NCBI GenBank assembly: GCA_964450385.1
Contig: CAYVEC010000002.1
Span: 65,262 to 129,261, forward strand
DNA: 64,000 nt
Source: an uncultured Planctomycetales bacterium
GTDB taxonomy: Bacteria; Omnitrophota; Gorgyraeia; Zapsychrales; JANLHA01
Direction of reading: 5' to 3'
Program-made: the position numbers and the translations under genes
Notes under the pieces: generated by a model
Told to the model about the DNA's origin: nothing
Seen by the model: only the letters and a program-made list of their open reading frames with translations
Database searches by the model: none
Part shown: one piece after another, positions 14,511-56,967 of the stretch
Numbering within the stretch: the stretch's first letter is position 1
Layout: each line of letters opens with the position of its first letter

Positions 14511-14511
14511 G

Positions 14512-14943: not shown

Positions 14944-14960
14944 TCTCGCCTCCTACTCAA

Positions 14961-16175
14961 TTATTGGACCATCATGTTCATCCGAAAGACCGGCAAGACC
15001 AGGGCCAGGACAATGAATCCGACGGCGAGCCCCAACCCGAGGATCAAGGCCGGTTCGAGTAATGTGCTCACCAGACGGGTCACCGCATCGAGCTGCCGCT
15101 TATAAAAATCTGCGAGTTTTTCAAACCCCCTCGCCAATTCCCCTGACTCTTCCCCAAGTGTCACAAAATCAACCACAAGGTCAAAAAAGAACCGTCCTTT
15201 TTTCAGCGCCGCGCTCAACCGCTCTCCGTCTCGAACATCTTCGATCACCTGCTGCATATCGTCCTGGGCCGTCCGCCAGCCCGTCGATCCTGCGGTGGCC
15301 TGAAGGGCCGCGATCACATCAACCCCGCCTGACAACAGGGCCCCGAGCATCCGGCTCCAGCGCTCAAACACCGCGCTCTTCAACAGCCTGCCGATGACTG
15401 GCAAACCGAGGACCGCGCCCTCCCAATAGAGCCGATGACGGCCATGACGCCACACGGCGCGGCCATAAAAACCGGCCGCGATCACCAGAAGCGCCCCGAC
15501 CCACCACAACCGAGAACAGAGATCGCTCACTGACATCAAGATAACGGTCGGCCAGGGAAGCGATTGCCCGATATCATCGAAAAGACCAGCCATCCGAGGG
15601 ATCACCCAGACAAGAAGGACCGACATCGTCGCGATCCCGACAACGATGATAAAGGCCGGATACAACAGGCTCATCATCACCTGCTGCCGAAGCCGATGCC
15701 GCGCCTCGAGCACATCGGCGAGACGCGCCATCATAGCCCCAAGCTGACCGCTCATCTCACCGACCCGCGCCATCTGGACCATCTCTTCAGAAAAAACATC
15801 ACGGTGCTGTTCCATGGCGGCTGAGACCGACGCCCCATCACGAACAGCCGCGGCCATCTCGGTCAAAAGGGCCTCGACCCCAGGATGCCGCGTCTGGGTC
15901 TGAAGGGCGGCCAAGGCCGCAGCTACCGGAAGCCCATGGTCCAAAAGATCGCTCCAGTGACGGATCAACATGACGGTGTCCCCCTCTGAAACACGCGGAC
16001 CCCGCGCCCCACGACGCCTCTCCCTGCGCGCCGAAGGCTGAACGCCGACGACCTCTAAAGGGACCATCCCCTGACCGTTCAACTGCCGGATCGCGCCTGC
16101 GGCGCTCTCCGCACTGATCTCGCCTCGAACGATCTTGTGCGGCCCCTGTTTCGCTGTATAAGAAAAAGTAAGCAC
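14961..16175 (-). CDS. gspF: Type II secretion inner-membrane platform protein GspF
   Basis: 404 aa. The N-terminus is MLTFSYTAKQG... The protein has two repeated T2SSF domains with three TM segments. Confidence 0.85.
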   Translation of the reverse strand: MLTFSYTAKQGPHKIVRGEISAESAAGAIRQLNGQGMVPLEVVGVQPSARRERRRGARGPRVSEGDTVMLIRHWSDLLDHGLPVAAALAALQTQTRHPGVEALLTEMAAAVRDGASVSAAMEQHRDVFSEEMVQMARVGEMSGQLGAMMARLADVLEARHRLRQQVMMSLLYPAFIIVVGIATMSVLLVWVIPRMAGLFDDIGQSLPWPTVILMSVSDLCSRLWWVGALLVIAAGFYGRAVWRHGRHRLYWEGAVLGLPVIGRLLKSAVFERWSRMLGALLSGGVDVIAALQATAGSTGWRTAQDDMQQVIEDVRDGERLSAALKKGRFFFDLVVDFVTLGEESGELARGFEKLADFYKRQLDAVTRLVSTLLEPALILGLGLAVGFIVLALVLPVFRMNMMVQ

Positions 16176-16197
16176 CCCCCCTCCCGTCGATCACCGG

Positions 16198-17901: not shown

Positions 17902-17951
17902 GATCCATCATCCGCTCGGGCATCGACCGATGAAATCGCACCTGTCATGAA

Positions 17952-19466
17952 TTATGACGATGTGTCCAATTTCCAAAAAATCACATATTCCGTATTAACG
18001 ACCCGCAGCTTGTCCATGCGAAAGGCCCCGCCAAGGACCGGCAGGTCCCCCAGGACCGGCACCTTCAAGGTCCGGGCCACCGACTCGGTCTTTATGAGCC
18101 CGCCGAGGACCACATAGGATCCGGCCTCGAATTGGACCTGGAACTTCTTTCCAGGATCGATGATGCCGCCAAGGCCCTTATCCGATTCTCCCATCCAAAA
18201 AAGCCGTGGATACACCGCGAATTGGATCATCTCATCCGGTAAAAATGACGCAGCCATCTCCGCCTGTATTTTAAACCCATCGGGATCGAGCATGACATCC
18301 TTGTCTTTGACCAGAAGGGGCGAAAATGGGCTCGTCGTGTCAATCACCGCGACCCGCTGCTCTTCTGCGGTCAGCGGGATCGACCAGGTCGAGAGGTCCT
18401 CGACAAAGCCAACCGCGTCCAAGGCCTCAAGGAGTACCTTGAAGTCCTCTTCATTTAAGATCCCAATCTTGAAAATCAACCCCGGCGGTTCCGAAGCACA
18501 CTCGGCGCACTCGAACTGTTGATATTGACTGATGATCGCGGCCCAATCAACACCGTTCGCGTACTCTTCGTTAAGCCGGATCCGCACGACCCTCACCTTA
18601 ACGGTGAGCTCAACCTTACGATCAGCCTCACGGATCGCCGCAGCGATCTTTTCAAGGGCCGCGGCCGAGTCCGTGACCGAAATGGAATTCTTAGCTGAAT
18701 TGACCTCAAGACGACCGACATCCTTCGTCAAGAACTTAGCCGCCAGGGACTGGACCTTTTCCGCGCGGGCGAACTGAAGGACAAAATCCTGGGTCACAGC
18801 CTCAACATCGCGATCCGTGACCGCGCGCGCGATCGTTTCAACCGCCGCGGGGGTATCAACGATAATGACCTGCCGATTTTTATCATCCATAAAAATCAAG
18901 CCCCCCTCGTTCGACAACGGGCGGACCATCGGTTCGATCATCGACGGCGACTGGTATCGAAGGCTGATCACCCGGACGGCGCGCTCAGGCTTAAAGGCCT
19001 TGCCATAACGATCAGCATACGCCTGACGAGGCATAACAATCGCCATCCCGTCTTCGATTTCGTAGGCCAGATCATATCTGAGGGCCGCGATATCGAAAAG
19101 GTCTTCAACAGAGACGTCCTTTACGGCGAGGCCGATGGCCGGCTCAATCCGAGCCGTCTCAGCGACGATGATCGTCCATCCCGTCATCCGAGCCATCTCA
19201 TCAAACAGCCCGCCAACTGTTTTCGCCTGAAGATCAACCGCGGGGAAACGCTCGCCGAGTGCCCGAGGCTGAGCAACGGGGAAGGCCGCGGGCGCGTCAT
19301 TCGTTGAGACAGCGGGCCCGCCTTCATAGGCATTCAGCATCCGCTCGATATCAACGCGACGCTCATCCTGGGCCCGTGCCCCTGAAGCCGATAAAAACAC
19401 GGCCACAACCGTTGTCACAATATAAAAATGAATACGCAACCATGTTTCCTTTCGCTCATACATCAT
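17952..19466 (-). CDS. gspD: Type II secretion secretin GspD (start chosen at MMYERKET; the ORF extends to 19556)
   Basis: Signal peptide and a C-terminal secretin domain (VLGGLIKTESVARTLKVPVLGDLPVLGGAFR). Confidence 0.85.
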   Translation of the reverse strand: MMYERKETWLRIHFYIVTTVVAVFLSASGARAQDERRVDIERMLNAYEGGPAVSTNDAPAAFPVAQPRALGERFPAVDLQAKTVGGLFDEMARMTGWTIIVAETARIEPAIGLAVKDVSVEDLFDIAALRYDLAYEIEDGMAIVMPRQAYADRYGKAFKPERAVRVISLRYQSPSMIEPMVRPLSNEGGLIFMDDKNRQVIIVDTPAAVETIARAVTDRDVEAVTQDFVLQFARAEKVQSLAAKFLTKDVGRLEVNSAKNSISVTDSAAALEKIAAAIREADRKVELTVKVRVVRIRLNEEYANGVDWAAIISQYQQFECAECASEPPGLIFKIGILNEEDFKVLLEALDAVGFVEDLSTWSIPLTAEEQRVAVIDTTSPFSPLLVKDKDVMLDPDGFKIQAEMAASFLPDEMIQFAVYPRLFWMGESDKGLGGIIDPGKKFQVQFEAGSYVVLGGLIKTESVARTLKVPVLGDLPVLGGAFRMDKLRVVNTEYVIFWKLDTSS

Positions 19467-19519
19467 TATTGCTAATCTATTATAAACGAAATTTCTAATA
19501 GTTATAATACAAGTATTTT

Positions 19520-20857
19520 TTATTTTGGGAGACCTTCTGACTGCCCGTCCGCACAATCGCGCCCTGAATCAACGGGCACCTCTCTGCCCATGCTCTCGAA
19601 GATCGCATGCGCCTCAGCGATCCGCCCCAATCTCAACAAGGCCTCGGCCTGCGTCAAACGATACACCGACCGGCCAGGAACATAGACCAATGCCTGATTA
19701 ATCGCGTCAAGCCCCCGGTCAAAATCCCCCTCTTCGTCCATATAGTACCAGGCGAGTTCATAGAGCGCCTCGGGATTCTGCGGACGCTCTTCGAGGCTCT
19801 TCTCTAAAAGCCGCTTGGCCTCACAGGGGCCCAGGTCTTCCGCACGATAGAGATACTCCGCATACGAGGGATTAAACACCCCCAAGAGGATGACCGGGAC
19901 CACGACCATCGTGGCATTAAAAAAATAATGGGCGATCACGCTCGGCCATACCGATCCGCTCCAGGCGCGGAACAGCGTCAAGACCATCCCCAAGACCAGG
20001 ATGATAACGACGGCGAGCGGGTCTCCGGCATATTGATCAAGGTGCATCCCCGTAAAGATCAACGCGCTCATGAGCACCGCGATCCCCCGTCCCTTGATCT
20101 GATCAATCACGTAATAAAAATAGCCTCTAAAAAAGATCTCTTCCAAAAGCGGAGCGACTCCGACAGCAACAAATAAAAACATCATGGCCATGCCCGATGA
20201 GTCGGCCATGTCGAGGAACTCGCTGAATGGCGTCGCCGGCTGGACTTGACGAAAAAAGAGCAGTGTTGAAGCAACGAGGGCCAGTCCCGCGCCCGCGAAG
20301 GCAGCCGCAGACCACGTCATAAGGCGCTGATGCCGATGACACACGGTCAGCCCCAAGAGCTCTTTAAGGTCCAATCCTGGGAACCGGCGAGCGCCTATAA
20401 CGATGAGGCCCATCATCAACAGCCCGCCGAAAAACGAAAGGAGCAGGATCCAGAAGACCAGCGGCATCGCGTGCCCCCACCCGGACTTCGCGGCCCGAAG
20501 GATCACCGACACGGCAATCATACCTACAAACCACTGGAAAATAACACCGATAGCCTCAATCCCGAGGACAAAACGGTACGACGGGCTGGCCGGGGCATAA
20601 TGTCCCCGCTCCGCAAACACACACATCGCCTTCCTCCGACGGAGGACATGTGCGGCCGCGACCAGGGCGAGCGCCAGGACAGCCGCGCCGTCGAACCCGT
20701 CGATCTGGGCAGCAAGGACAACTGATATCACCGCGAGCGCCCCGGTCAAGAGAAAGTGGAATGAAAAGACCTCGCGAAAAACATCACGTCCGACCTTTTT
20801 GATCAACAAGAAATCACTAAACAAGAGAACGGGCAAGATAACAAATGCGGTATCCAT
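19520..20857 (-). CDS. CPBP-family intramembrane metalloprotease (CAAX protease/Abi) with C-terminal TPR-like region
   Basis: EEIFFRGY ... FTGMHL motifs of CPBP, in a multi-TM protein. Confidence 0.7.
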   Translation of the reverse strand: MDTAFVILPVLLFSDFLLIKKVGRDVFREVFSFHFLLTGALAVISVVLAAQIDGFDGAAVLALALVAAAHVLRRRKAMCVFAERGHYAPASPSYRFVLGIEAIGVIFQWFVGMIAVSVILRAAKSGWGHAMPLVFWILLLSFFGGLLMMGLIVIGARRFPGLDLKELLGLTVCHRHQRLMTWSAAAFAGAGLALVASTLLFFRQVQPATPFSEFLDMADSSGMAMMFLFVAVGVAPLLEEIFFRGYFYYVIDQIKGRGIAVLMSALIFTGMHLDQYAGDPLAVVIILVLGMVLTLFRAWSGSVWPSVIAHYFFNATMVVVPVILLGVFNPSYAEYLYRAEDLGPCEAKRLLEKSLEERPQNPEALYELAWYYMDEEGDFDRGLDAINQALVYVPGRSVYRLTQAEALLRLGRIAEAHAIFESMGREVPVDSGRDCADGQSEGLPK

Positions 20858-35949: not shown

Positions 35950-36750
35950 ATGCTTGAACAATTATGCCTAGGGATGGTCCAAGGAATAGCCGAATGGCTT
36001 CCGATCAGCTCGGAAGGCATGATCGTTTTTGTCCAAAGGATCTTTTTCGGCCATACGGACTTTAAAACGACGATTCAGGGGGCGCTGTTCCTCCATCTCG
36101 GGTCGGCCTTGGCAGCAATGATTTATTTTAAAAACGACATCATCTCCCTCGTGCGAGCACTCTGTGCGCCCAAACGGGCATCGGCCGCCGAACAGACCCT
36201 CCTCTCCTTTCTTGTGGTCACGACCATCGTGAGCGGGCTCCTCGGCCTAGCCCTCATCACGACCATCGGCCGGTTCCTTGACACCTGCCCGTACGCCACC
36301 CCGATATCCCTCTGGCTCCTCGCGGCCGGATTGGCCTTGACCGCGCTCTTCCAATATTATGCCAAAAATCAGGGGCACCGGAACGCCGGAGACCTAAAAA
36401 TGCCCGATACCCTGATTTTAAGCGCTGCTCAGGGTCTGGCAAGCCTGCCCGGCATCTCACGCTCCGGAATCACGATCTCGTGCCTCTTATTCCGCAACCT
36501 GAGCACTGATGAAAGCCTCCGGATCAGTTTTTTAATGAGCGTCCCGATCGTTTTGATCGGAAATGTTGCGATCGGCCTCTTTGGCTTCTCTTATGATGCC
36601 GTCCACCTCATCGGCCTTGCGGCCTCGTTCGTGACCAGTCTCGTGACCATCCACCTCCTCATGGCGGTTGCCCGAAAGGTGAATTTTGCCCCCTTTGTCG
36701 GCTTCATGGCCCTTCTGGTCGCCCTTTCTGCGGTTTTCCACGCCTACTGA
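35950..36750 (+). CDS. uppP: Undecaprenyl-diphosphatase
   Basis: GIAEWLPISSEGM and 8-TM BacA pattern. Confidence 0.85.
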   Translation: MLEQLCLGMVQGIAEWLPISSEGMIVFVQRIFFGHTDFKTTIQGALFLHLGSALAAMIYFKNDIISLVRALCAPKRASAAEQTLLSFLVVTTIVSGLLGLALITTIGRFLDTCPYATPISLWLLAAGLALTALFQYYAKNQGHRNAGDLKMPDTLILSAAQGLASLPGISRSGITISCLLFRNLSTDESLRISFLMSVPIVLIGNVAIGLFGFSYDAVHLIGLAASFVTSLVTIHLLMAVARKVNFAPFVGFMALLVALSAVFHAY

Positions 36751-36868
36751 TACGCCGCTGTGATGAGCGGCTTAACCGCCTGACGCCACAAGGGATATCG
36801 ACCGAGTCTCTCCGAGACCTCCGACGGGGCCAAACGCCAAAATCTCAAAAAATTTTTTATATAAAAAC

Positions 36869-36896
36869 TTGACATCGGAAATATTTATAGTAAATT
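36869..36896 (+). promoter_or_regulatory. Sigma70-like promoter (TTGACA-16nt-TAAATT) in a low-GC 390-nt intergenic region, ~245 nt upstream of the speH-like/SET operon
   Basis: A perfect -35 hexamer and a partial -10. The long AT-rich leader follows. Confidence 0.3.
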
Positions 36897-37143
36897 TAAG
36901 GTGCAACAAAAAGGAGCATGCAATTCCTCAAAAAGTCCCCTAATAAATGGGGCAAGGCCAGGTAAACCGGGTTTGCCTGTCCGACACGGAAGGAAAGATT
37001 TCCTAACAACGCACTCTGATTTTTAAGTATTCTCGTGCCTACTTAAAAATTCGTTTGCGTTTTTTATTTTTTATAAACCGACTACAAAGGAGGATGACCT
37101 TAGCGGCCTGCTTTTGTAGAATCACACGGGAGAAGCGAACAGA

Positions 37144-37533
37144 ATGAACACAAAACCACGAGAATACCGACGGATCAACGAGAACGGAACGATTTATTAT
37201 GGAAAGCATCTCATTGTCACCGCGCGCGGATGCAATGAGAGCCTCTTAGACAAGGCTGCGATCGCCAAGTTCATGACCACCCTCGTCAAACGGATCGACA
37301 TGGTCGCCTTTGGCGATCCGATCGTCGAGCGTTTCGGCGGCGGCGTGGAAGTCGGTATCTCGGCCGTCCAATTAATCGAAACCAGCGCCATCGTCATCCA
37401 TACCAACGACCAGGCACGCGACATGTACCTCGATGTCTTCAGCTGCAAAACCTTCTCGGAGGACGCGGCTATCGAGTTCGTGAAAGAAAACTTCAGTCCA
37501 ACCTCCATCAACCACCAGGTGCTCATGAGATGA
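37144..37533 (+). CDS. S-adenosylmethionine decarboxylase proenzyme-like (SpeH/AdoMetDC small form)
   Basis: VQLIETSAIVIHTNDQ...DVFSCKTF matches the AdoMetDC (L)IAESHISIHTWPE...DVFTCG core, including the processing-Ser context ETS. Confidence 0.6.
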   Translation: MNTKPREYRRINENGTIYYGKHLIVTARGCNESLLDKAAIAKFMTTLVKRIDMVAFGDPIVERFGGGVEVGISAVQLIETSAIVIHTNDQARDMYLDVFSCKTFSEDAAIEFVKENFSPTSINHQVLMR

Positions 37534-37994
37534 ACAGATTCTATCCCAAATTCGTTCCAGAATTTCCGTACGAGCCGTCTCCGGAAAAATTCAAGATCGG
37601 CAGGATCAGTAAAGCCGTCGGTTCCGGCGTCATTTCAAAGGCAGCGTTCAAAAAGGGTGAGATCGTTTTCGGTTTTACAGGTTTCACGATCGACTTCATC
37701 ACCCAGTTCTCATTGCAGTACGGCAAGAACATGAACATCCATGATCCGTTCTTCATGGGCAAGGTCCTCCATTCATGCGACCCGAACACATCGTGTGATA
37801 TGCAGCGCCGGATCTTCATTGCCCGGCGGGATATCCATCCCGGAGAGCTCGTCACCATGGACTATGAACAGACCGAGGACGTGCTCTTTAAGCCCTTCCT
37901 CTGCCAGTGCGGAGCGGGCAACTGCCGAAAGATCATCCAGGGCAAGGCGATGGTCGCCGATGCCATGCGTAAATCTATGCGTAAGGTCGCCTGA
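37530..37994 (+). CDS. SET-domain protein lysine methyltransferase (small bacterial/viral-type SET)
   Basis: LHSCDPN (NHSCxPN), ELVTMDYE (catalytic Tyr) and post-SET CQCGAGNCR. The ATGA start overlaps the upstream gene. Confidence 0.75.
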   Translation: MNRFYPKFVPEFPYEPSPEKFKIGRISKAVGSGVISKAAFKKGEIVFGFTGFTIDFITQFSLQYGKNMNIHDPFFMGKVLHSCDPNTSCDMQRRIFIARRDIHPGELVTMDYEQTEDVLFKPFLCQCGAGNCRKIIQGKAMVADAMRKSMRKVA

Positions 37995-38051
37995 TCAGGC
38001 GTGATAACAAGAATGATTGACGGGGGCTGCAGCTAATGCAGCCTCCCTTTT

Positions 38052-39389
38052 TTATGCGATACCAAGACGCCGAAAAAAACGCCGGCGACGCGACCGGGAT
38101 GGATTAAAATACCCGCACAGGGTCGCTGGAAACTCGCGGTGAACCATCCGAATGTGCTCGGCCAGTCCCAAAGGCAGCCTCCGGCCGGATTCAAAGCCGA
38201 TAGCCCGGAGATAGCCGAGGGGATCAAAATTCATGTTGCGCCATTGAATCATGTCAACAGATCCTGTCCGAAGCAGCCGGCGAAGGGCGCGGGTCTCACC
38301 AGCGGAATCCGTGACCCCCGGGGCCACAAGATAATTGATCGAGACAAATCCCCTGCAGCGCTTGGCTATCCGAATCGAGGCCATCACATCCGCAAAAGAA
38401 TATCCTTTCGGACGGTAATAGCGCTCATAATACTCTGGCTGAAGACTATTGAGACTCACCCGCACACTGTCCAACCCGGCCTCAAAGAGTGCGCGGATCG
38501 CCTCGGGCCGGCTCGCGTTCGTATTGAGATTGATCACCCCGCGCCGGGTCGCCCGGCGGATCAGCCGAACAGACTCGATCAGAATATCAGCGACGTTCAA
38601 GGGTTCGCCCTCACACCCCTGACCAAAACTTACTACCGGATCCCGGGTAGCCCGGATATGCGTAAGCGCGGTCTCGGCCACCTCTTCGGGTGTCGGTACA
38701 AAGGCGATCCGAGGCTGAGTCACCGGGCACTCTCCATCGGGTTGATACGAAATGCAGCCGACGCAGCGGGCATTACACGTCGGCGATGTCGGGAGCGGGG
38801 CCTCGTATCTTTTTAGAAAAAAATTCCTGGCCGCCGGGCAGCCGTTGACACAGGCGCAGGTCTCAAGATGGCGCATGAGACGATTTTCGGGAAATCGTTT
38901 CTGGTACTCGCGGATGGTTTGTTTCATGAGATCGAGGTCCATCAGCCGGGGATCCTGCCTGAGCTCCCGGTCCACCCGGATCGCGGCAGCATAAAATTCA
39001 CCGCGGAAAAACGCCACGGCCCCATAGGCAAACATCGGCAGCAGGCGGGCGCTCGGACGCTCCTCAAACGCGGCATGATAGCTGGCAGTATACCCCGGGG
39101 CCAAAAAAGCAGCAACCGGATAGACCGGGCCGCTGATCCCCTCCAGGGGGCTCGTGTCGATCCGGCACAACCGCCGGTTCTCCAAATCACAGGCGATCGC
39201 TAACCGGTCCGGGAGCATATAGAGCGCACTGCACGCCGGAAGCCTGACGCAGTCCTCTCGCGTCAAGGGGACATACTGACCCCCGGCCATCCCCACGGCC
39301 TGTAAAAAAGGCACATTAACGATCCGGCCCTGGCCGTCGCTCACAACGAGTTGTGGATATTGTTCTGCCATCAGGTCCCCTAAAGACAA
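38052..39389 (-). CDS. Radical SAM enzyme with ~200-aa N-terminal extension of unknown function
   Basis: CNARCVGC (CxxxCxxC). No C-terminal SPASM cysteine cluster was seen. Confidence 0.7.
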   Translation of the reverse strand: MSLGDLMAEQYPQLVVSDGQGRIVNVPFLQAVGMAGGQYVPLTREDCVRLPACSALYMLPDRLAIACDLENRRLCRIDTSPLEGISGPVYPVAAFLAPGYTASYHAAFEERPSARLLPMFAYGAVAFFRGEFYAAAIRVDRELRQDPRLMDLDLMKQTIREYQKRFPENRLMRHLETCACVNGCPAARNFFLKRYEAPLPTSPTCNARCVGCISYQPDGECPVTQPRIAFVPTPEEVAETALTHIRATRDPVVSFGQGCEGEPLNVADILIESVRLIRRATRRGVINLNTNASRPEAIRALFEAGLDSVRVSLNSLQPEYYERYYRPKGYSFADVMASIRIAKRCRGFVSINYLVAPGVTDSAGETRALRRLLRTGSVDMIQWRNMNFDPLGYLRAIGFESGRRLPLGLAEHIRMVHREFPATLCGYFNPSRSRRRRFFRRLGIA

Positions 39390-40128: not shown

Positions 40129-43100
40129 TCATTTCGTCTTCCCCTCGGCCAGGACGCCCCCGAACCCGTCAAAGGGAACGACCCTGATGATCACGGGGGC
40201 CAGCCCGGTCAGCGGGCGCGACAACGAGTCCTTCCAATTCATAAGATCGATCGCCTGCCCTTCCGTTTCGTCGATAGCGACATCGGTCATGTCAAAGTCA
40301 ATCCCGCCGACGTCTCGTGCCTGAGACGCGTCGGCTCGGGCCGATCGGTCAACCGGGGCCGGATCACCAAAAAAATATCTCTGAACGTCTTCATAGAGCA
40401 TTGTCTTAAGAACTATCTCATCAAAGGCACGCCAGACTTGGCGGGTATCCGTGCCCGTATGATTCTGTGACAACCACAATGAAACGTCTTTGAGCCAACG
40501 TTGATACTGAACAGGCCTTGCGACAAGATGAAAGGCATTCAACAGGCCAAGCACCTGATCCATGTCTCCCACCTCAAGATTGCTCGATGCATCAGCAGGG
40601 TTTTTCTTGCTCACAAGATCCTGTGAATCAATGGTGCGTATCTCTCCTCGGGCGGTTATGATAAGATTCGACAGCCGCAGATTTTGATGGGCAAACCCGT
40701 AGCGCCCCTCAGCATAGCGCAGGCGTTTAATAAATTCTCCCAACGCCATGACAGCCCCTGGCTCACCCAAACCGGCCACATCACCAAGCCCCCTGATTCC
40801 CTTCTCCCGATCGACAAGAAAATGGGGACTCAGCCGATAATCCGCTCCAAGGGATTCACGGTTTTTCAGCTGCGAAAAAAGACTCATCACCAGAGGGTCA
40901 TCCGAGATGTCGTTAAAAAATTCATCCAGTCGGTCCCCAGGCCGACCCTCTGCGCTCGATAGACCGTGTCCCATGACCACAAAGACGCGCTCAGGCTCGC
41001 GATCCTGGCCATCAAAAAATAATACAGCCGTAAAAATAGAGTCAAATAAGTTCTCTACTCTTCCGGTAACAAAAAGTCTTCGGCCGTCCGGATACTCCAA
41101 GACCGGGGTCTCGCCATTCATCAGGCCGCGACGCAGGGCCTCCTCTATATCCCCACCGGTCCACTCATATCTCATCGGATTTCTCGGCACACCGTCAGAC
41201 GAAAAAAACTCGCCCTCTTCCCGGGCCTCAATCTCGATCAACGACGGCGTCGCCCCCGCCATCATCTGATCAAGAAGGCTGTCCCCCTTGCGCCGCTGCC
41301 ATCGCACGCCCGTCCCGAACTGCGGATCCCATTCAAACCCTGAGCCCGTCACGCCAAACGTCCGACTATCAATGCCCGCGCGACGAAAGATCTGGTGAAT
41401 CTGGCCCTGAGGCCACGCGGCCGACTGAAAATAATCGGTCGTCCCTATATAAAAACCGGCCTCATCATCGATCATATCAAGGACATCGCGCACATCCATC
41501 AGCGCCTCAGGTAAACGGGTCGAATCAAACACGACATTGTCAAAACGATGCGAGATCCCCAGGTGACTAAAGGCCAGATCGGCCTTGTCCGTTCCCATCT
41601 CACGTAAAACCGCCTTAAGATTCACGACAAAGGACTCCTTGTCGTCCCAAATAAAAAACACATTCGATTCAGTCGTCCGAATCCATTCCGGGAAGAAATC
41701 CCTGCTATATCCCACAAAAAACAGATTCCTCACCCCCTGCCGCCGATAATGTTCTCCGAGCTCCTTCAGCCCTATCCCGGCCCCGCACCCCAAATCAACA
41801 ATGACAATCGGGTCCGCCTCGTCAACCCTCTTTTGAATCCGCTCATCGATCAACGCCCGAACAGGAATAATACGCTCAATGTCCTCAAGCCGCGTATGCG
41901 TTTCCTGCCATTCCGTCGTATCCTCATGCCTAAAAACGACACCCCCCGTATGATCCCGCTCAATGGTCATAACCCCGTCCGGACGGAGATCCTCTCCGGT
42001 GATCGGTACGGTTGTAAACAGCTTACTTCCGTTGACCTCTATTCGTTGAGGCTCAGTGAGCATCGCCTGATCTGCCACCGTTAAATTGAGCCGATATTCA
42101 TTCGCGAGATATCCGTCCAGAACAACCTCCTCAAAAGCATCCCAGTAGTCCGCAAGGGTCCCGGTCCTCCCCTGACGCGCGACCCACTCGCGCATCTCAT
42201 CCTTCCAGGACTCCGGGACCGGATCAGTCAGCATCTCCTGATCGCCGAGAATGTCGATGAGCGATCCAAAATCGCTCATCATGTCATCGGGGTCCCAATA
42301 CTCAAAGGCATGAGATGTGACGCGGCTTCCCTGCATGAGCGCGATCTCATTCCAGTCAATAAGACGCAGTCCTCGGCGGGGATCAACCATAATATTGCGA
42401 GGAAGCAGGTCCCCATGGATAAACCCGAACCGGCGCTGGGCATCACGAAGACGGTGAATAAATTCAATTACCTGCGTTCGCATCGCACGAGATGACCCCC
42501 TCCGCTCAAGCGATTCACCAGAGGCCTGGTCGAGGATAAAATGCCGCGCCAGACGATAGTCCTCCTCGATTGTCTGAAGATTAGCCGGCGCAGCGAAAAA
42601 ATCCCGAGTCGCCGGATCGGCCTGGACGGCTTGGAAGAATTCTTTTAACCGCCTCAGGCGCGCGCCCATCCGCTGAGACGGCGCCTCCATCGCTGCAACG
42701 ATGAACTTCACCACAACGTCCTTCGGCGCCGCAGGATGTCGAGGATCCGTCAGCCGCCCCCGGAAAACTTCCGCGGCCCAAGAATTCGTGATGCCCTCAA
42801 TGATCTCGAGACGCCTGCCGTCTGGATACTTGAGCACCGGACGACGACCATTTTTTAACCCGTCCCGAAGCTGATCGCACAAAGAAACGGCATTGTGATC
42901 CCATGCCACCGGCATCGTCGGCTTAACAGTGAGCCGAACGCTGCTCAGCCCCCCTTCTAATTGTTTGAACAAAAGCGGGTCCTTGGTCACCCGAACCATC
43001 GTCACCGTCATCCCTTCCGCCTCGAACAATCGAGGGTCGACATTGTTTTGTTCGAGATGCGATAAGGGAAACAGCCATAATCCCGCGCCGTCATCAAACA

Positions 43101-44832
43101 CGTCTAAGATGTCATGCCGTATATACCCAATGACATCCTGTTGACCAGACGCCTTCCCGCGACTGCTAAAAAGATGGGTGATGCCCAAGTGGCTAAATCC
43201 CAAGCTGACCTTTTCTGCCCCGATCACGTCAAGAATCCGACGGAGTAAAATATTGAAATGCTCCTTCTGATCCCAGATCAAAAAGACATTCGGCCGCGTC
43301 CCCTCACCCCACTGCCGCGGCATGTCCGCCCCATAACCAATAAAAAAAAGATTCTTCCGATCCTCATATCGCGCGGCGAGCTCCTTCAGGGTCCGGCCGC
43401 TGCCGCATCCCCAGTCAAGAATCACGATCGGCTTTTCAGGTTCAGAAGAGGCCTCACGATCAGCGATGAGGGCGTCAATCTTACGCGTAATATCCAAATG
43501 ACCATCAACCGCCGCGAGTGACGAATTCATGACCGGCCATGGAGACTCCTCGCTAGTCTCCAAGTACGGCTCGGAACCAACGCCGTCCCGCAGACTGACA
43601 AACCCGTGATTGCGCCACAATGCCGCCAAGAACTGATCGCTCAGTTCCGTTCGGGTCGTATAGATCGTCTGCCCCTGAAAATCGACGTTTCTGACCTCAA
43701 CACCAGCAGCCATCCGTGTATGGGCTACTGTGCCCGAACCCTGCCCCATGGGCCGGACCATCGTATCGATCTTTACCCACCTGGCATCTGGACCGACGGC
43801 AGACCGCAGGTCGTTTTGCGTTCCATCCTCGGTGAGCATCGCCATGTCCATCGCGACCCCGCCGGAAAAATATTTGCGGGGCACCACCTCCCCGCGTTCG
43901 GCGTCATACTCCTCACGAATAAGACTGTAGACCCCCTCGCGCAACGCCTCAAGATATCCCTCATAGATCTTTGTCGTATCCTCATCATCCGTGAACTGAA
44001 CACCCGCCACCAATCCCTGATCAACATACCGCGCCCCGAGGATCCCCTGACGGAGATGCCGTTTATACCAGGCCGCCAGAATCAAGGCGTGATAGATCTG
44101 TCTCAGTCGGCGAAAACGCGGGCCCTCATTCACCTCGTGCTCAAGCGCCGGGACAAGGACGTCGCGCAAGACCGTCCCTCTCCCTGAGTGATCCGCAGAC
44201 ACGCCTTCTGATCCCGGCTTCGTCTTCCCACGATACTCTCCATCCATCATGACGCGGAGCCGGGCCCGGGTCACAAAGACCCGCGGCCCGTCGACATAGA
44301 CCTGCGCCTCGGCGGGAACGATCCAGACCTTGGGGGTCACTTGATCGGCGCCCTGTTCTGCTGCGAGCCCAGCCTGCCCGAGCGCCGTCCAAAAACGGCG
44401 GCCGGTCTCCTCCTCCGGGTGAAGCAGGGAGGCGCTCACGTGTTTGAGCACATAATCCTCCGCGAGCATGTCCCGCCCCATCTCTGTATCGCCAAAGGCG
44501 TCCGCGATGATCCGGTCCGGCTCATCCGGAGAGAGATTGACCCACATGTCTTTTTCCGGAATGGTTAACGCGGCTAGAAAATATTTAATCAACCGCGCAG
44601 AGTCATCCGTGACCTGGGCCTCATCACCTGTGGCCTCTCCGGGATCGAGAATAAATTGAAAATGAAGGGGATTGTCCGCATCGAGTTCGATGCCGCGCAG
44701 CATCATCGGCTGAGACGCCACAGGAGATCCCGGCGCCCAAAGAGGGGCCTCAGCCCATCCGACCGAAGCGAGGACCAAGGCAAAACAAACAAAAAAAGGC
44801 AAATAAAAACGAATTTTTGTGATTTTCATCAT
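40129..44832 (-). CDS. Giant (1567 aa) signal-peptide-bearing protein with two tandem modules, each a class-I SAM-methyltransferase-like domain followed by an APH/choline-kinase-like phosphotransferase fold; the second kinase-like domain is degenerate
   Basis: Signal peptide ...SVGWAEA. MTase motif I appears twice (IVILDWGCGSGRTL at ~aa 480; IVIVDLGCGAGIGL at ~aa 1010). APH-like catalytic region IHGDLLPRNIMV...LIDWNE is present in module 1. Module 2 reads FAHQNLRLSNLII...TIDSQD. Internal repeat PVLKYPDGRRL / PVLEYPDGRRL. Confidence 0.6.
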   Translation of the reverse strand: MMKITKIRFYLPFFVCFALVLASVGWAEAPLWAPGSPVASQPMMLRGIELDADNPLHFQFILDPGEATGDEAQVTDDSARLIKYFLAALTIPEKDMWVNLSPDEPDRIIADAFGDTEMGRDMLAEDYVLKHVSASLLHPEEETGRRFWTALGQAGLAAEQGADQVTPKVWIVPAEAQVYVDGPRVFVTRARLRVMMDGEYRGKTKPGSEGVSADHSGRGTVLRDVLVPALEHEVNEGPRFRRLRQIYHALILAAWYKRHLRQGILGARYVDQGLVAGVQFTDDEDTTKIYEGYLEALREGVYSLIREEYDAERGEVVPRKYFSGGVAMDMAMLTEDGTQNDLRSAVGPDARWVKIDTMVRPMGQGSGTVAHTRMAAGVEVRNVDFQGQTIYTTRTELSDQFLAALWRNHGFVSLRDGVGSEPYLETSEESPWPVMNSSLAAVDGHLDITRKIDALIADREASSEPEKPIVILDWGCGSGRTLKELAARYEDRKNLFFIGYGADMPRQWGEGTRPNVFLIWDQKEHFNILLRRILDVIGAEKVSLGFSHLGITHLFSSRGKASGQQDVIGYIRHDILDVFDDGAGLWLFPLSHLEQNNVDPRLFEAEGMTVTMVRVTKDPLLFKQLEGGLSSVRLTVKPTMPVAWDHNAVSLCDQLRDGLKNGRRPVLKYPDGRRLEIIEGITNSWAAEVFRGRLTDPRHPAAPKDVVVKFIVAAMEAPSQRMGARLRRLKEFFQAVQADPATRDFFAAPANLQTIEEDYRLARHFILDQASGESLERRGSSRAMRTQVIEFIHRLRDAQRRFGFIHGDLLPRNIMVDPRRGLRLIDWNEIALMQGSRVTSHAFEYWDPDDMMSDFGSLIDILGDQEMLTDPVPESWKDEMREWVARQGRTGTLADYWDAFEEVVLDGYLANEYRLNLTVADQAMLTEPQRIEVNGSKLFTTVPITGEDLRPDGVMTIERDHTGGVVFRHEDTTEWQETHTRLEDIERIIPVRALIDERIQKRVDEADPIVIVDLGCGAGIGLKELGEHYRRQGVRNLFFVGYSRDFFPEWIRTTESNVFFIWDDKESFVVNLKAVLREMGTDKADLAFSHLGISHRFDNVVFDSTRLPEALMDVRDVLDMIDDEAGFYIGTTDYFQSAAWPQGQIHQIFRRAGIDSRTFGVTGSGFEWDPQFGTGVRWQRRKGDSLLDQMMAGATPSLIEIEAREEGEFFSSDGVPRNPMRYEWTGGDIEEALRRGLMNGETPVLEYPDGRRLFVTGRVENLFDSIFTAVLFFDGQDREPERVFVVMGHGLSSAEGRPGDRLDEFFNDISDDPLVMSLFSQLKNRESLGADYRLSPHFLVDREKGIRGLGDVAGLGEPGAVMALGEFIKRLRYAEGRYGFAHQNLRLSNLIITARGEIRTIDSQDLVSKKNPADASSNLEVGDMDQVLGLLNAFHLVARPVQYQRWLKDVSLWLSQNHTGTDTRQVWRAFDEIVLKTMLYEDVQRYFFGDPAPVDRSARADASQARDVGGIDFDMTDVAIDETEGQAIDLMNWKDSLSRPLTGLAPVIIRVVPFDGFGGVLAEGKTK

Positions 44833-53407: not shown

Positions 53408-54751
53408 CTAGGCAGCCCGGCTTAAAGGGTCCGGGCCGCTTTCCCCTAATATGGCAGAACCAGGAATGCCCTTAATGAACTCCTGCCTCAGGCTATAGGT
53501 GTAGGCGCCCTGGACCGGGACAAGGAGAATGTCTCCTTCCCGGATGCCTGTACCAAAATAGGAATATCCCCAAAGGTCATGAGGCGTACAGAGCGACCCA
53601 AAGACCGTGCATTCCCGCTCATCAAGCCCGGGCTGGCTCAGATTGATCACAGGAAAATAATCCGCCTCATAGCGTTCCCAGCCGACCATATTGATCCCGC
53701 CGTCCACGATCACGACATCATCCGCTTTTTTATCCATGACCTTGAGCAGAATATGCATGGCCTCATGGCTGATCCAGCGGCCCGGTTCGAGATGGACCGC
53801 GCAGTCGACATAGGGAAAAACATATCGGCGAAGCGCCGTGTCCAACTCCTTCACAAAATCCGTGATCGGCGCTGCGCGATGCCATCGATGATCCAGGCCT
53901 TCCGTAAGCCGCGGGTCCGCGATCTTTTTCACCTGCCCCTCGGGCGTGGCCGAGGGCTGGATCCACTCGCCATCCGGAGGCCAATAGCCGCCGCCGATAT
54001 CCAAGAACGTGATCCTCGATCGCAGGGGCGCAGCGAGGTCCGCCAGAAGCCCGCCGAGGCGTTCCAAAAAGGCCGTCTGTTTCCTTGCGTCGAGATTCCA
54101 GCTCGCGTGGAATTGAAACCCGCAGAGATCCAATGCATCACACGCTGCGGCCGCTTCAACAAATCGCGGCACCTCGCGTAACGGAATCCCAAATTTGCGC
54201 CAGAGACCCTCTTCTTCGATCATCAGACGGACCCCGGCACGGATCCTTCGCCCCTTCGACCCGCCGAAGACCTGCGGCGCGACGCGCTCGAGCCGCGCGA
54301 GCTCACCAAAACTATCAAGCAACAGGATCACGCGATCGGCATGACGGCAGGCAAGGAGGAGTTCCTCATCGGTCTTGCCCGGCCCGCTAAAAATGATCTC
54401 CCGCGCCTCAGATCCGAGGGCCAGACCAAGCTCACGGCCGCTCGACACATCAAGGCCATACCCCTGACGGACCACGCTCGTAATCACCGCCGGGTGATCA
54501 TTACTTTTCATCGCATAAAAACAGGTCACCTGCGGCAGGACGGCCAAAAAGGCATCGCGGAATTCAATCGCCCTCCGCGTCAGCGCCGGCACATCAACCA
54601 GATAGACCGGGGTGCAGTCAGCGGCCTCGATATAGCGTTCCTTCGCTTCAATAAAACGCCGCACAAAGGCCCGCAAGACCGCCTCGTCCAGAAGCGGGGT
54701 CTCGGCACGTAAGATCCCCTCGATATTATTGAAGTAATTTTGCGGGTTCAT
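53408..54751 (-). CDS. PLP-dependent decarboxylase, Orn/DAP/Arg decarboxylase family 2 (exosortase-system-associated type); start chosen at MNPQNY
   Basis: FYAMKSN (PLP-Lys) ... barrel and C-terminal beta domain motifs. Sits in a PEP-CTERM locus. Confidence 0.7.
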   Translation of the reverse strand: MNPQNYFNNIEGILRAETPLLDEAVLRAFVRRFIEAKERYIEAADCTPVYLVDVPALTRRAIEFRDAFLAVLPQVTCFYAMKSNDHPAVITSVVRQGYGLDVSSGRELGLALGSEAREIIFSGPGKTDEELLLACRHADRVILLLDSFGELARLERVAPQVFGGSKGRRIRAGVRLMIEEEGLWRKFGIPLREVPRFVEAAAACDALDLCGFQFHASWNLDARKQTAFLERLGGLLADLAAPLRSRITFLDIGGGYWPPDGEWIQPSATPEGQVKKIADPRLTEGLDHRWHRAAPITDFVKELDTALRRYVFPYVDCAVHLEPGRWISHEAMHILLKVMDKKADDVVIVDGGINMVGWERYEADYFPVINLSQPGLDERECTVFGSLCTPHDLWGYSYFGTGIREGDILLVPVQGAYTYSLRQEFIKGIPGSAILGESGPDPLSRAA

Positions 54752-56039
54752 TCTTGAACTCAATGGCCACCTGCACCTTCTGCATGATCTCACAACACTG
54801 GCCTTCAAGGACCCGATCGGACAATGGAGAAAAGATGACATACCCCAAGACGCGCGAATCATAATCCTTAGGCGGCAGCTGGATTCTCTCACCCGGCAGG
54901 CGGTACGGCTGCCACGATCGAACCCGGTCATCGGCCAAGGCCTCGGACGCATCGATCGACCTTAAGATCCCCTCCTGCTGGGCAAAGATCCGCATGCCGA
55001 CAAGCCGCTGCCACCGCCGAGGATCGACGGGGACAACCGTCCGGCCTTCCGCGAAGTCAAAGCTCGCGGCAAAGACATCAAACCCGGAACTGGCTTGAAT
55101 CAACGGAGGCAGGCAATCGCCTCCAAGGCGGGGCGTCATCTCAAAAAATACGATTCCTTCTCCGACAAACTTAAAATCCGCCATCATGATGCACCGGGTC
55201 AATCCAAGGCTGAGCGCCGCCTGACAGACATGACCTTCAATCCGCTCCAGAGTCCACCCCTCGGGCAGGACCGCCGGTACCTCATACGCCATGATCGTAC
55301 CAAAGACCTCGCCGCGCTTCGCGATCTTTTTCGATACCCTGAGCGCCCGGACCCGTCCGCCCTCAAGCATAAAATCACCGCTGTACTCATCGCCCACGAT
55401 ATATTCCTCAAGGACCACGGCCTGACGGGGATCCTCATCATCAGCCATATCGATCCCGCCGTACATCCTCTCGTTGGGGTGCGCGGCGAGGGTCTTGCGG
55501 ATGAGCTGGAACGAGCGCCGGCAGTCATCGGCGCTCGCGCACAAAAAGACAAGTTCTCCGCCGCTGCCGCTTAGCGGCTTCATCACGGCGAGCCCGCCCG
55601 CAAGGTCCTCAAAAAAACCCACCGCCTCAGCCTCGGTCGCGGCAAGAGCCGCCCGAGGGCACCCGACACCGGCAGCCATCCAGACTCGTTTTGAAAGATG
55701 TTTCGACCGGCAGCGGACCACGGCCTCGTGTGATGAAAAATCCAGACCAAAGGCCTCGGCCACGGCCGCGCCGAGCCAGAGGGATTCGCAGTCATAACAG
55801 ACAACGCCCGACAGGGTCCATCCGTAACGGCCGAGATGCGCCCGAACGGCCTCGACGACCGGCCCCGCCTCAAGCAGGCCCACGAGCACCTCAGCGTCCG
55901 GCGGCGGCACGAGCTGCGGCCAACGGCCGCGTTCTCCGGGATCCGTCACAAAAAGGGCGCGGCCAGGGAACCGCCGCGCCAGCATGTCGATGTAGTCCGC
56001 CGTTGTCCCAACCACCAGAACTCGCGCATTGGCAGTCAT
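54726..56039 (-). CDS. ATP-grasp domain enzyme (carboxylate-amine ligase-like)
   Basis: ATP-grasp fold pattern (VMKPLSGSGG..., ...EEYIVGDEYS..). Confidence 0.55.
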   Translation of the reverse strand: MTANARVLVVGTTADYIDMLARRFPGRALFVTDPGERGRWPQLVPPPDAEVLVGLLEAGPVVEAVRAHLGRYGWTLSGVVCYDCESLWLGAAVAEAFGLDFSSHEAVVRCRSKHLSKRVWMAAGVGCPRAALAATEAEAVGFFEDLAGGLAVMKPLSGSGGELVFLCASADDCRRSFQLIRKTLAAHPNERMYGGIDMADDEDPRQAVVLEEYIVGDEYSGDFMLEGGRVRALRVSKKIAKRGEVFGTIMAYEVPAVLPEGWTLERIEGHVCQAALSLGLTRCIMMADFKFVGEGIVFFEMTPRLGGDCLPPLIQASSGFDVFAASFDFAEGRTVVPVDPRRWQRLVGMRIFAQQEGILRSIDASEALADDRVRSWQPYRLPGERIQLPPKDYDSRVLGYVIFSPLSDRVLEGQCCEIMQKVQVAIEFKNEPAKLLQ

Positions 56040-56046
56040 GGGAGCC

Positions 56047-56967
56047 TCAACTGATATTGCTTAACAGGTCCAGGGGACGAGGAGAGAGATGGAAGATCTT
56101 TTTCCAGGAAAAATCCCCGCTCAAGAAGTCTGCCTCTTTGTATTTCTCTTCGCAGGCCTTCTTGATATGATGCAGATTGATCACCTTGGCCACGCCAGGA
56201 TAATTCGCGTCGGTCCCGCCGGCCAACAGGGTATAGACGCCTTTATAAAGACAGCCGACATCCACGGCCGCAGGCTTTCCATCAATAATGACGGTCGTGA
56301 TCCTCAGCCACCGTTTCTTCCGAAGGAACTCGGCAAGCTGGCGGAAACTGGCGCTGAACCGTTCATCCTTAAAATACGAATCCTCCCCAAAACGCTCGAT
56401 GCTCATGCGCACCATGACATCAAAGTCTGAGAACTCGTCAAGACGAATCGTAAGATCGCGCAGATAATACTTATCGACCTCGCGGCTGATCGCCTTGCGG
56501 GACTTCCGGGAAAAAAGGGCATAATAATTATCGATATTATAGCTCATCAGTTCCGAATAAAAGATATACCCGATCTCATCGGTCGTCGAGAGCTTCGCCG
56601 GAAGGTGCGAATTCGGAAGGAGATACCGCAGATGAAATGGGATTTTTTTGCGCTTCAACCAGTTGAGCATCTGATTAAAGACCGCCTGGTCGCGGGCCAC
56701 GACCCGGTTCTGCTCCAGCCAGGTCTTCCCCTGCCAGACTTCGCCGGGAAAATATCCGTAACAGTTACTCTCAGGGATCCAGCTGAGCGGAATCAGGCCG
56801 AGCGGCTGACCATCCTCCTGGGCAAAGATAAACAGCGGGGTGCGTTGAAAATGATCATGAAAACATTCGCGGACTTCCCAGAGATCCATGAGACGATCCT
56901 CGGGGATCATCCGCTTCCACAATTGTCGACAGGTGTCAAGGTCAGAAGTGCTGTAAACTTTTATCAT
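56047..56967 (-). CDS. FemAB-like/GNAT-fold acyltransferase (PEP-CTERM-system-associated FemAB-related family)
   Basis: ~300 aa BioF2/FemAB-like acetyltransferase pattern. Neighbours are PEP-CTERM genes. Confidence 0.5.
   Translation of the reverse strand: MIKVYSTSDLDTCRQLWKRMIPEDRLMDLWEVRECFHDHFQRTPLFIFAQEDGQPLGLIPLSWIPESNCYGYFPGEVWQGKTWLEQNRVVARDQAVFNQMLNWLKRKKIPFHLRYLLPNSHLPAKLSTTDEIGYIFYSELMSYNIDNYYALFSRKSRKAISREVDKYYLRDLTIRLDEFSDFDVMVRMSIERFGEDSYFKDERFSASFRQLAEFLRKKRWLRITTVIIDGKPAAVDVGCLYKGVYTLLAGGTDANYPGVAKVINLHHIKKACEEKYKEADFLSGDFSWKKIFHLSPRPLDLLSNIS

Follow-up and report, generated by a model that had tools for sequence, protein, structure and literature searches.

A translationally coupled AdoMetDC-fold and BurB-like SET gene pair, a candidate two-gene route from methionine to DMSP-amine in uncultivated bacteria

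A 64,000-nt stretch of DNA (hereafter the window; positions 65,262–129,261 of contig CAYVEC010000002.1, assembly GCA_964450385.1) from an uncultured bacterium, named as Planctomycetales in GenBank and placed in the Omnitrophota by GTDB, carries two overlapping genes, A and B, that with somewhat more confidence than doubt are read here as a self-contained module converting L-methionine via S-methylmethionine (SMM) to 3-dimethylsulfoniopropylamine (DMSP-amine), with A as a pyruvoyl-dependent SMM decarboxylase. DMSP-amine is the committed intermediate of the ‘methylation’ route to dimethylsulfoniopropionate (DMSP). Gene A (37144..37533, 129 aa) is identified by its open reading frame (ORF), a Pfam match (PF02675) and a structure model as a proenzyme with the fold of S-adenosylmethionine (SAM) decarboxylase (AdoMetDC), and gene B (37530..37994, 154 aa) by its ORF, a Pfam SET match and its match to BurB as a BurB-like SET-domain methyltransferase; both genes, and all features of the pair given below, lie on the plus strand. 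The two ORFs and their motifs (ETS, IHT and DVFSCKTF in A; LHSCDPN, ELVTMDY and CQCGAGNC in B) are present where the original prediction from the bare sequence had placed them, and the translational coupling that it described is real, with the TGA stop of A (37531–37533) sharing bases with the ATG of B (37530–37532) in an ATGA at 37530–37533. The SMM-decarboxylase step proposed for A is based on gene coupling, gene fusion, non-orthologous displacement and the chemistry of the family.

The pairing, singled out from the start as unusual, is not unique to this genome and is conserved in many phyla. A genome scan for homologs of A, taking one genome per species, returned nine loci (52–77% identity), all of which had a homolog of B (44–68%) directly downstream; the hosts were a member of the Planctomycetales, two Sedimenticolaceae, two Omnitrophota, a member of the Myxococcota, a metagenome-assembled genome (MAG) of the Pseudomonadota, Permianibacter, and a Gammaproteobacterium. 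Many of the A- and B-type homologs recovered by the searches were located on shared contigs, further matches carried source names from the Chloroflexota (Anaerolineae), Acidobacteriota, and Spirochaetota, and in an Omnitrophota MAG and in Spirochaetes contigs the order AdoMet_dc then SET recurred among unrelated flanking genes. Every other A-type locus with room to judge had the A→B pair (22/22; at least six phyla), a 4-nt stop/start overlap was present in 14 of 22 pairs, and in unfused loci A always came first and B second. All-against-all ORF clustering of 11 loci found no gene common to them besides A and B.

Gene B has a SET match in Pfam (PF00856; E = 1.4e-7, 32.3 bits, cutoff 22.4) and a confident model (predicted local distance difference test [pLDDT], 93) with the SET fold, which matches >300 SET structures in the PDB at E ≤ 1e-3. 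The best PDB sequence match is BurB (9L4T, 9L4V; E = 2.8e-23), gap-free over residues 16–140 (125 residues) at 40% identity, and the next matches, to histone lysine methyltransferases (KMTs), reach only ~1e-5. A Foldseek search with the model likewise placed the BurB-SMM-SAM and BurB-Met structures on top (E = 1e-14; template modelling [TM] score, 0.83), compared to E ~1e-7 and TM ~0.6 for the KMTs. On both measures the initial view that B methylates lysines of proteins or histones is probably wrong, and B is probably, judging from these similarities, a candidate L-methionine S-methyltransferase. BurB is the SET enzyme of the Burkholderia bur cluster, for which biochemistry and structure have established S-methylation of free L-methionine to SMM, with 4-methylthio-2-hydroxybutyrate (MTHB) and methylmercaptopropionate (MMPA) not accepted (PMC12542666, PMC7496086), and its counterpart in S. 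mobaraensis has the same function at just 35% identity (PMC7496086). The SET proteins coupled to A share up to 49% identity with BurB, within a family that forms a continuum up to 58%. Several SET homologs of ~160 aa (P0156, P0171, P0181) carry the JGI name ‘tyrocidine synthetase III’, evidently a misannotation.

Much of the substrate and cofactor site of BurB can be followed into B. In BurB, SAM is contacted by R42, A44, H72, H93 (through the adenine), R133 and H138 and methionine by the backbone of R70, T73, V130 and M132, with Y124 as an additional contact whose alanine mutant (Y124A) is nearly inactive (PMC12542666). The SET cofactor-binding motif LHSCDPN (residues 80–86; 37767..37787) of B places His81 at BurB His93, and the family shows no variation at H81, C83, P85 or N86. 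Tyr112 and the following Thr115-Glu-Asp-Val-Leu119 (37863..37886) correspond to BurB Tyr124 and the methionine-binding loop (BurB Val130, Met132), with Y112, T115, E116 and L119 invariant over the whole family including BurB, as are within the family all three cysteines of the post-SET cluster C125-x-C127-x4-C132 (37902..37925). Among the contact residues, H93 (H81), Y124 (Y112), V130 (V118) and the TEDVL loop are kept, R133 is conservatively replaced (K121), and four are altered (R42 to V, A44 to S, H72 to F, H138 to Q). Since methionine is held through backbone atoms, side-chain differences say little about the substrate, and from these comparisons a specificity identical to that of BurB is likely for B.

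Gene A covers nearly the full Pfam AdoMet_dc profile (PF02675; E = 2.3e-18, 66.9 bits, profile positions 1–106 of 107), matches phrog_3125 (E = 1.2e-20), and has an AlphaFold (AF2) model (pLDDT 95) for which the best structural match is the T. maritima AdoMetDC (TM 0.77–0.84, root-mean-square deviation 1.8 Å); over the T. maritima and A. aeolicus structures 1vr7, 1tlu and 2iii, TM scores were 0.72–0.84. Pfam matches and models therefore agree on the AdoMetDC fold of A and the SET fold of B that had been proposed, and for A the profile and fold comparison, on which the proposal could have failed, upheld the fold. The predicted self-processing site is Thr80|Ser81 (37381..37386), with Ser81, the would-be pyruvoyl group, aligned to T. 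maritima S63 and also to S229 in the SpeDC domain of D. phosphitoxidans, where the surrounding residues are likewise QLIETS. As the S229A mutant of that SpeDC has undetectable ornithine decarboxylase (ODC) activity (PMC10407285 Table 4, Fig. S5), the Thr|Ser cleavage context has been validated in this sister group. His86-Thr87-Asn88-Asp89 (37399..37410) supplies the catalytic His (T. maritima H68) followed by the TND signature that defines the clade of A, and Cys101 (37444..37446), which lies in the FSCK motif and is predicted to donate the catalytic proton, aligns with T. maritima C83. Ser81, His86 and Cys101 are invariant across the A clade, as is Thr80 (140 members). With this catalytic set intact, A is a class 1b AdoMetDC-fold pyruvoyl proenzyme for which self-cleavage is predicted.

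Nevertheless, A is not a true SAM decarboxylase. True AdoMetDCs have a fully conserved Pro after the catalytic His, within an HT(W/Y)PE motif (Michael laboratory, PMC10407285), and because A reads H86-T-N-D-Q at this site, with Pro in 0 of 140 clade members, and scores 46.8 bits against the NCBIfam equivalog TIGR03330 (cutoff, 75.65 bits), it is not a bona fide AdoMetDC; for the same two reasons the suggestion of a role for A in providing or depleting the methyl donor is probably wrong. The accompanying suggestion, that A may act on another substrate in the manner of the archaeal AdoMetDC-like arginine decarboxylases, is supported by the evidence. Identity is 34–36% to the proven SpeDC domains (E = 1e-14 to 1e-17) and about 22–27% to true SpeD. 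Two biochemically proven SpeDC domains read ‘...VQLIETSLxSGHFAN...YxDxFSC’ (PMC10407285 supplement), and the corresponding stretch of A reads ‘...VQLIETSAIVIHTND...YLDVFSC’. Of the diagnostic SpeDC residues Gln, Thr, Phe and Tyr (JBC 2023 Fig. 8; located from the sequences in Fig. S5 rather than from the logo), A has Gln76, Thr80 and, as the likely fourth, Tyr95, with Thr87 in place of the Phe. A comparison of 140 A-type and 151 SpeDC-type sequences separated the two groups at position 87, directly after the catalytic His (Thr in 99% of the A clade, Phe in 100% of SpeDC types), position 88 (invariant Asn vs variable), position 19 (Tyr vs Trp), and position 63 (invariant Arg vs variable), such that the motif at the catalytic His is HTWPE in true AdoMetDC, HF(V/A/C)(E/D) in SpeDC, and HTND in A. 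A rough neighbour-joining tree gathered the twelve H(T/S)ND representatives, the three fusions to SET domains among them, into a single clade (16/149 tips). A is a member of a distinct ‘HTND’ clade beside the SpeDC ornithine decarboxylases and is not a typical SpeDC.

The HTND signature and the SET neighbour occur together. In a scan of metagenome contigs with a mixed alignment, from which the best 80 loci were kept, a SET gene was directly downstream of 8 of the 9 HTND-type genes, and the 71 loci with a different signature had no SET gene (0/61 of those with ≥450 nt downstream; Fisher p ~1e-9). When 1.84 billion representative proteins were searched exhaustively, three SET-AdoMet_dc fusion representatives were recovered as well (P0241, P0244, P0268), of which the P0241 cluster holds three member sequences on 8 contigs. 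The domain order in the fusions is SET then A, opposite to the gene order, and the fusions are consequently not read-through artefacts. The overlap of stop and start codons, along with the existence of natural SET-A fusions, suggests that A and B are made in a fixed ratio and may hand over SMM directly. Other fusions, of SpeDC-like domains, were AdoMet_dc with a CxxCxxCC domain, an InPase (inorganic pyrophosphatase) domain with AdoMet_dc, and two double AdoMet_dc proteins (set P0250, P0263, P0264, P0265), the double proteins resembling published SpeD-SpeDC fusions.

Further evidence comes from the decarboxylase that adjoins SET genes of the BurB type. Two SET genes close to BurB (P0202, 58%; P0201, 50%) occur in bare two-gene pairs directly upstream of a pyridoxal phosphate (PLP)-dependent decarboxylase of the ornithine/diaminopimelate/arginine (Orn/DAP/Arg) family. 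This is also the family of BurI and the Streptomyces SMMDC, whose SMM decarboxylase activity is proven, given their relationship to DAP decarboxylase (PMC11464771, PMC12542666). The SET genes P0191, P0196 (49% to BurB), P0199 (40%), and B of the window are instead directly downstream of an A-type gene, and a decarboxylase gene always adjoins the A-coupled SET, of the pyruvoyl family rather than the PLP family. In a rough tree of the SET proteins the BurB clade is compact, with the SET domain of the fusion P0244 (46% to BurB) as its closest neighbour. Because the same first enzyme has two unrelated enzymes in the second slot, the pattern is one of classic non-orthologous displacement. The source genome has a PLP decarboxylase of the Orn/DAP/Arg family that is unlinked to the SET gene; this 514-aa protein is encoded in the window next to an ATP-grasp protein and an Acetyltransf_6 (FemAB-like) protein and close to a PEP-CTERM protein (53408–56967 and 61092–61934, both minus strand), an arrangement that resembles exosortase-associated exopolysaccharide loci.

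Under the proposed mechanism, B, by homology to BurB, would methylate the sulfur of free L-methionine with SAM, giving SMM and S-adenosylhomocysteine. A would cleave itself at Thr80|Ser81 to generate an N-terminal pyruvoyl group, form a Schiff base with the α-amine of SMM, and decarboxylate it with His86 and Cys101 as the catalytic residues, Cys101 protonating the product, to release DMSP-amine and CO2. A would have evolved within or beside the AdoMetDC-derived SpeDC lineage and would replace the PLP-dependent SMM decarboxylase of the BurI/SMMDC type. In Spartina, the SMM decarboxylase evolved from a homolog of ornithine decarboxylase and lost the ornithine activity (PMC11464771), and the switch from ornithine to SMM thus has a precedent, albeit in another fold. 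SMM amounts to SAM minus the adenosine, so that the AdoMetDC fold would have returned to a methionine-sulfonium substrate by way of an ornithine-type intermediate. In Burkholderia only burB and burI are essential, while burD and burE (aminotransferase, dehydrogenase) are dispensable and housekeeping enzymes are proposed to substitute (PMC7496086), which implies that a two-gene module could be sufficient. Speculatively, an unlinked general aminotransferase or oxidase and an aldehyde dehydrogenase would complete the route to DMSP; alternatively, DMSP-amine would itself be the end product, and might function as an osmolyte or stand in for a diamine as its sulfonium analogue.

Beyond the reaction itself, the chances appear evenly balanced that A is the founder of a fourth functional class of the AdoMetDC fold and forms, with a BurB-like SET, a compact, horizontally mobile two-gene (sometimes one-gene) sulfonium route in uncultivated, largely anaerobic lineages. 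The pair occurs in the Omnitrophota, Planctomycetota, Spirochaetota, Chloroflexota, Myxococcota, and sediment Gammaproteobacteria, none of which are among the DMSP producers named in the cited literature. An HTND-type pair with the ATGA overlap is also found at 4630–5456 of a 79-kb contig (L103; Logan SRR27217540), surrounded by small same-strand ORFs, two ParB_N proteins, a SWIM protein, an Asn_synthase/QueC-like protein, and methyltransferases, a phage- or plasmid-like context which suggests that the A-B module may be mobile. At one locus (L019, 8754–14644) the pair is beside B12-dependent MetH, MsrA and MsrB, and at another (L018, 182–3673 and 9168–12617) it lies between two large MscS/MscK-like channels, two glutathione-synthetase/RimK-like ATP-grasp genes and CorA, each a single case; in the window an MscS gene is located 6 kb upstream of the pair. 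Anecdotally, these three contexts fit methionine or osmolyte biology.

A number of observations weigh against the SMM interpretation. We infer the substrates of A, of B and of the A clade throughout, the closest proven relatives of A decarboxylate ornithine and not a sulfonium compound, and the sequence gives no proof of a switch to SMM. Near the pocket, the motif ‘MGK’ of the A-coupled SETs replaces the ‘SGL’ or ‘TGY’ of the BurB clade, BurB His72 is usually replaced by Phe, and His138 is Gln in B, and with these pocket-adjacent differences the substrate of B could differ. The ORF clustering of the 11 loci recovered no aminotransferase, amine oxidase or aldehyde dehydrogenase conserved beside the pair, leaving DMSP as the final product unsupported; a dedicated DMSP-amine aminotransferase or DMSP-aldehyde dehydrogenase is likewise lacking at both pairs of a BurB-clade SET and a PLP decarboxylase (L016, L101). 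Many hosts come from anaerobic habitats that are not marine, in which DMSP has no obvious role, and Rfam scans of the window and related loci gave neither a riboswitch for SAM or Met nor any other link to regulation. The A and SET trees are rough neighbour-joining trees without support values. One HTND-type gene, on a short AT-rich 1.3-kb contig (L029, 521–925), is alone in having no SET neighbour, and stand-alone BurB-like SET genes with no adjacent decarboxylase occur on two IMG/VR viral contigs (L106, 5959–6423; L107, 5950–6429). The lone HTND-type gene sits between a glutaredoxin/NrdH-like ORF and a PAAR-like ORF, suggesting phage. The viral SETs (38–44% identity to B, 37–38% to BurB), one near an RNA ligase and a ribonucleotide reductase and the other near sugar-nucleotide enzymes, might be phage genes that divert SAM or methionine.

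Four other explanations can be set against conversion of methionine via SMM. It is unlikely that A is a plain SpeDC/SpeDA-type ornithine or arginine decarboxylase, producing putrescine or agmatine, and that B methylates a polyamine nitrogen, another metabolite or a protein. A does have the QLIETS...YLDVFSCK core of the proven SpeDC domains at 34–36% identity and retains the acidic residue at position 89 as in SpeDC, and primary amines are the classic SET substrates; yet the SpeDC-diagnostic Phe, present in all 151 SpeDC-type sequences, is Thr in 99% of the A clade, HTND signature and SET adjacency coincide almost perfectly, the nearest relatives of B are methionine S-methyltransferases, and no polyamine genes are conserved beside the pair in the 11 loci. 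The SpeDC-type loci that were looked at have polyamine or phage contexts, for instance a gene adjoining a CASDC-like decarboxylase beside a protein of the saccharopine-dehydrogenase family, to which CASDH belongs (L047), and another in a phage primase-helicase context (L074). Two further SpeDC-type (HF) genes (L034, 6371–7225; L050, 6354–7208) are directly followed by a gene for a 284-aa protein with weak similarity (E ~1e-7) to the dimethylarginine dimethylaminohydrolase/amidinotransferase fold, which may be an arginine- or agmatine-related partner. Less probable still, and very unlikely, is the combination closest to the original prediction, in which A is a genuine SAM decarboxylase (SpeH) tuning the SAM supply and B a protein-lysine methyltransferase with nucleoid proteins or host chromatin as its target. 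This agrees with the Pfam names AdoMet_dc and SET and with the source annotations of the homologs (‘S-adenosylmethionine decarboxylase’, ‘SET domain-containing protein-lysine N-methyltransferase’), but A is without the AdoMetDC-invariant Pro, falls short of the equivalog cutoff (46.8 vs 75.65 bits) and has just 23–27% identity to true SpeD, and B is much nearer to BurB than to any KMT. The spermidine synthase SpeE is the obligatory partner of SpeD/SpeH and is often adjacent, but no speE was present near the pair among the larger ORFs of the window, nor was one conserved in the 11 loci, and the hosts are free-living environmental bacteria of many phyla for which no secretion signal or effector context was noted.

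The other two explanations retain a methylation and a decarboxylation and change the order or the substrate. Were the order reversed, A would decarboxylate L-methionine to 3-methylthiopropylamine and B would S-methylate this to DMSP-amine, which would fit the position of A before B in every unfused locus and resembles the ‘decarboxylation’ route proposed for a dinoflagellate, the enzymes of which are not known (PMC12542666). This order is improbable: the fusion proteins run SET then A, BurB binds both the α-amino and the α-carboxylate groups of methionine through loops that are kept in B, the substrates of the relatives of A (SAM, Arg, Orn) have a cationic distal group that methionine does not have, and the Lys (K78) that A-coupled SETs have gained near the pocket would seem better suited to a carboxylate substrate than to a diamine-like cation. 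The same logic could also apply to a different amino acid, for example if 2,4-diaminobutyrate, ornithine or lysine is N-methylated and then decarboxylated to yield a methylated diamine, given that BurB grips its substrate mainly by the backbone so that side-chain specificity could drift, that the A-coupled SETs differ from the BurB clade near the pocket, and that A is from a lineage binding amine side chains. Such a substrate is likewise improbable, as the gap-free alignment with BurB implies that the α-carbon site and the methyl donor are equally far apart in the two, the identity of A-coupled SETs to BurB is as high as 49%, the SET domain of one fusion groups with the BurB clade, and both characterised members of the family act on methionine.

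DMSP and its breakdown gas dimethyl sulfide are major components of the sulfur cycle and of climate, and the bacterial DMSP synthesis genes dsyB, mmtN, burB and dsyGD/DSYE serve as survey markers for producers. If the route via SMM is correct, the pair may represent an overlooked bacterial route toward DMSP with a type of decarboxylase not yet tied to the SMM step, and its genes would become markers with which sulfonium producers could be surveyed in six or more additional phyla, the majority uncultivated. A would then be a third, non-homologous type of SMM decarboxylase, and the AdoMetDC neofunctionalisation series (SAM, arginine, ornithine) would gain a fourth substrate that is a truncated form of the ancestral one. 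Annotations of small bacterial proteins as ‘SET domain protein-lysine methyltransferase’ can conceal small-molecule S-methyltransferases. With natural fusions and a clean signature change from HF to HTND, the hypothesis is directly testable with two small proteins. SET-type methionine S-methyltransferases, the methylation pathway to DMSP, and AdoMetDC neofunctionalisation to arginine and ornithine decarboxylases are already known. In the literature available as full text, outside of which most subscription-journal papers lie and in which a prior description is possible, no link of an AdoMetDC homolog or pyruvoyl enzyme to SMM or DMSP-amine and no SET-AdoMetDC pairing was found.

With a promoter-like site in front and a terminator-like hairpin behind, A and B look like an independent bicistronic unit. 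A consensus scan found a −35 TTGACA and a −10 TAAATT separated by a 16-nt spacer at 36869..36896 (10/12 positions; a pattern match only), and a second, weaker site within the leader at 37094–37122, the two promoter-like sites upstream of A comparing to 1.1 ± 1.1 expected from shuffles. Provided that the first promoter is active, the AT-rich leader or 5′ untranslated region spans 36897..37143 (43% GC). The TTGACA element of the original prediction is therefore present, but its ~245-nt leader hinges on which promoter is used, the second site giving a leader of ~20 nt. A ribosome-binding site, GGGAG, is positioned ~11 nt 5′ of the ATG of A. Directly 3′ of B is an intrinsic-terminator-like element (38022..38056) with a 10-bp hairpin (38022–38046; 7 G-C) followed by a T-run (CTTTTTTATG). 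The low-GC island described for the operon is not there, and its being a low-GC or horizontally acquired island was rejected, as A (53.1% GC) and B (52.0%) have the GC and third-position GC (GC3, 0.70–0.72) of the neighbouring genes (GC3, 0.61–0.72; whole window, 55.7% GC) and the 393-nt intergenic leader (43.3% GC) is the sole AT-rich part.

Searches for a regulatory element in the leader were negative. Rfam returned chance-level matches only on 36500–38300, even at E ≤ 10, with no riboswitch in the leader; at gathering thresholds there was no riboswitch 5′ of any pair in the whole window and 16 related loci; and k-mer and folding checks of 20 leaders (the window and 19 other loci) found no common motif, just AT-rich promoter-like runs. 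A c-di-GMP-I riboswitch (78 bits) at 13067–13152 of an Omnitrophota MAG locus (L009), ~2.2 kb downstream of the pair, is probably unrelated. A match to CRISPR-DR29 at 37802–37839 was dismissed as chance (20.2 bits vs a threshold of 39, inside gene B, single copy). Neither A nor B matched the PADLOC defence-system models, and a defence role was dropped.

Elsewhere in the window, a 445-aa radical SAM protein (38052–39389, minus strand) is convergent with the pair, and two minus-strand terminator-like hairpins (38079–38097) fall inside the predicted 3′ end of its ORF, for which the annotated stop or start may need checking. A 1567-aa ORF (40129–44832, minus strand) begins with an N-terminal signal-like segment and apparently comprises two tandem modules with a methyltransferase-like DWGCGSG/DLGCGAG motif and a kinase-like region, though in Pfam it has only a weak match to the APH phosphotransferases (E = 1.2e-7). 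A type II secretion or type IV pilus-like cluster (7272–19556, minus strand) includes two secretins, a GspE/MshE-type ATPase, GspF, and GspK. No tRNA or other Rfam family reached its gathering score in the 64 kb.

Compared to known systems, the pair combines elements of several. With the BurB methionine S-methyltransferases (MSMT) of B. thailandensis and S. mobaraensis, B shares a similar size (154 aa vs 172 aa in BurB), the SET plus post-SET layout, and an adjacent decarboxylase gene, but its partner has the pyruvoyl-dependent AdoMetDC fold and is not a PLP enzyme, B is the second and translationally coupled gene, and no aminotransferase, aldehyde dehydrogenase, or nonribosomal peptide synthetase-polyketide synthase genes are near the pair. 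A shares with class 1b AdoMetDC (T. maritima TM0655, B. subtilis SpeD) the fold, the self-processing Ser, and the catalytic His and Cys, and SAM is a methionine sulfonium of which SMM is the truncated analogue; it differs in having HTND for HTWPE, in an identity of ~22–27%, and in that a spermidine synthase partner was not seen among the larger ORFs of the window. SpeDC (Li, Liang, Phillips & Michael, JBC 2023) is alike in the class-1b fold, QLIETS with Thr before the pyruvoyl Ser, YLDVFSCK, and loss of the AdoMetDC Pro, while A has Thr for the diagnostic Phe, Y19 for Trp, and the invariant R63 and N88, is partnered by a SET gene instead of speE, hss, or CASDH/CASDC, and is found in fusions with SET instead of SpeD. 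Finally, BurI/SMMDC and the Spartina SMM decarboxylase (SDC) resemble A in the reaction proposed for it (SMM to DMSP-amine and CO2) and in a parallel origin, from the ornithine/DAP-decarboxylase lineage, and BurI/SMMDC also in the genomic slot beside a BurB-type SET gene. All of these rely on PLP and an alanine-racemase-type barrel, as opposed to the protein-derived pyruvoyl group in the ~14-kDa AdoMetDC fold of A, and if A has SMM-decarboxylase activity it is a non-homologous isofunctional enzyme.

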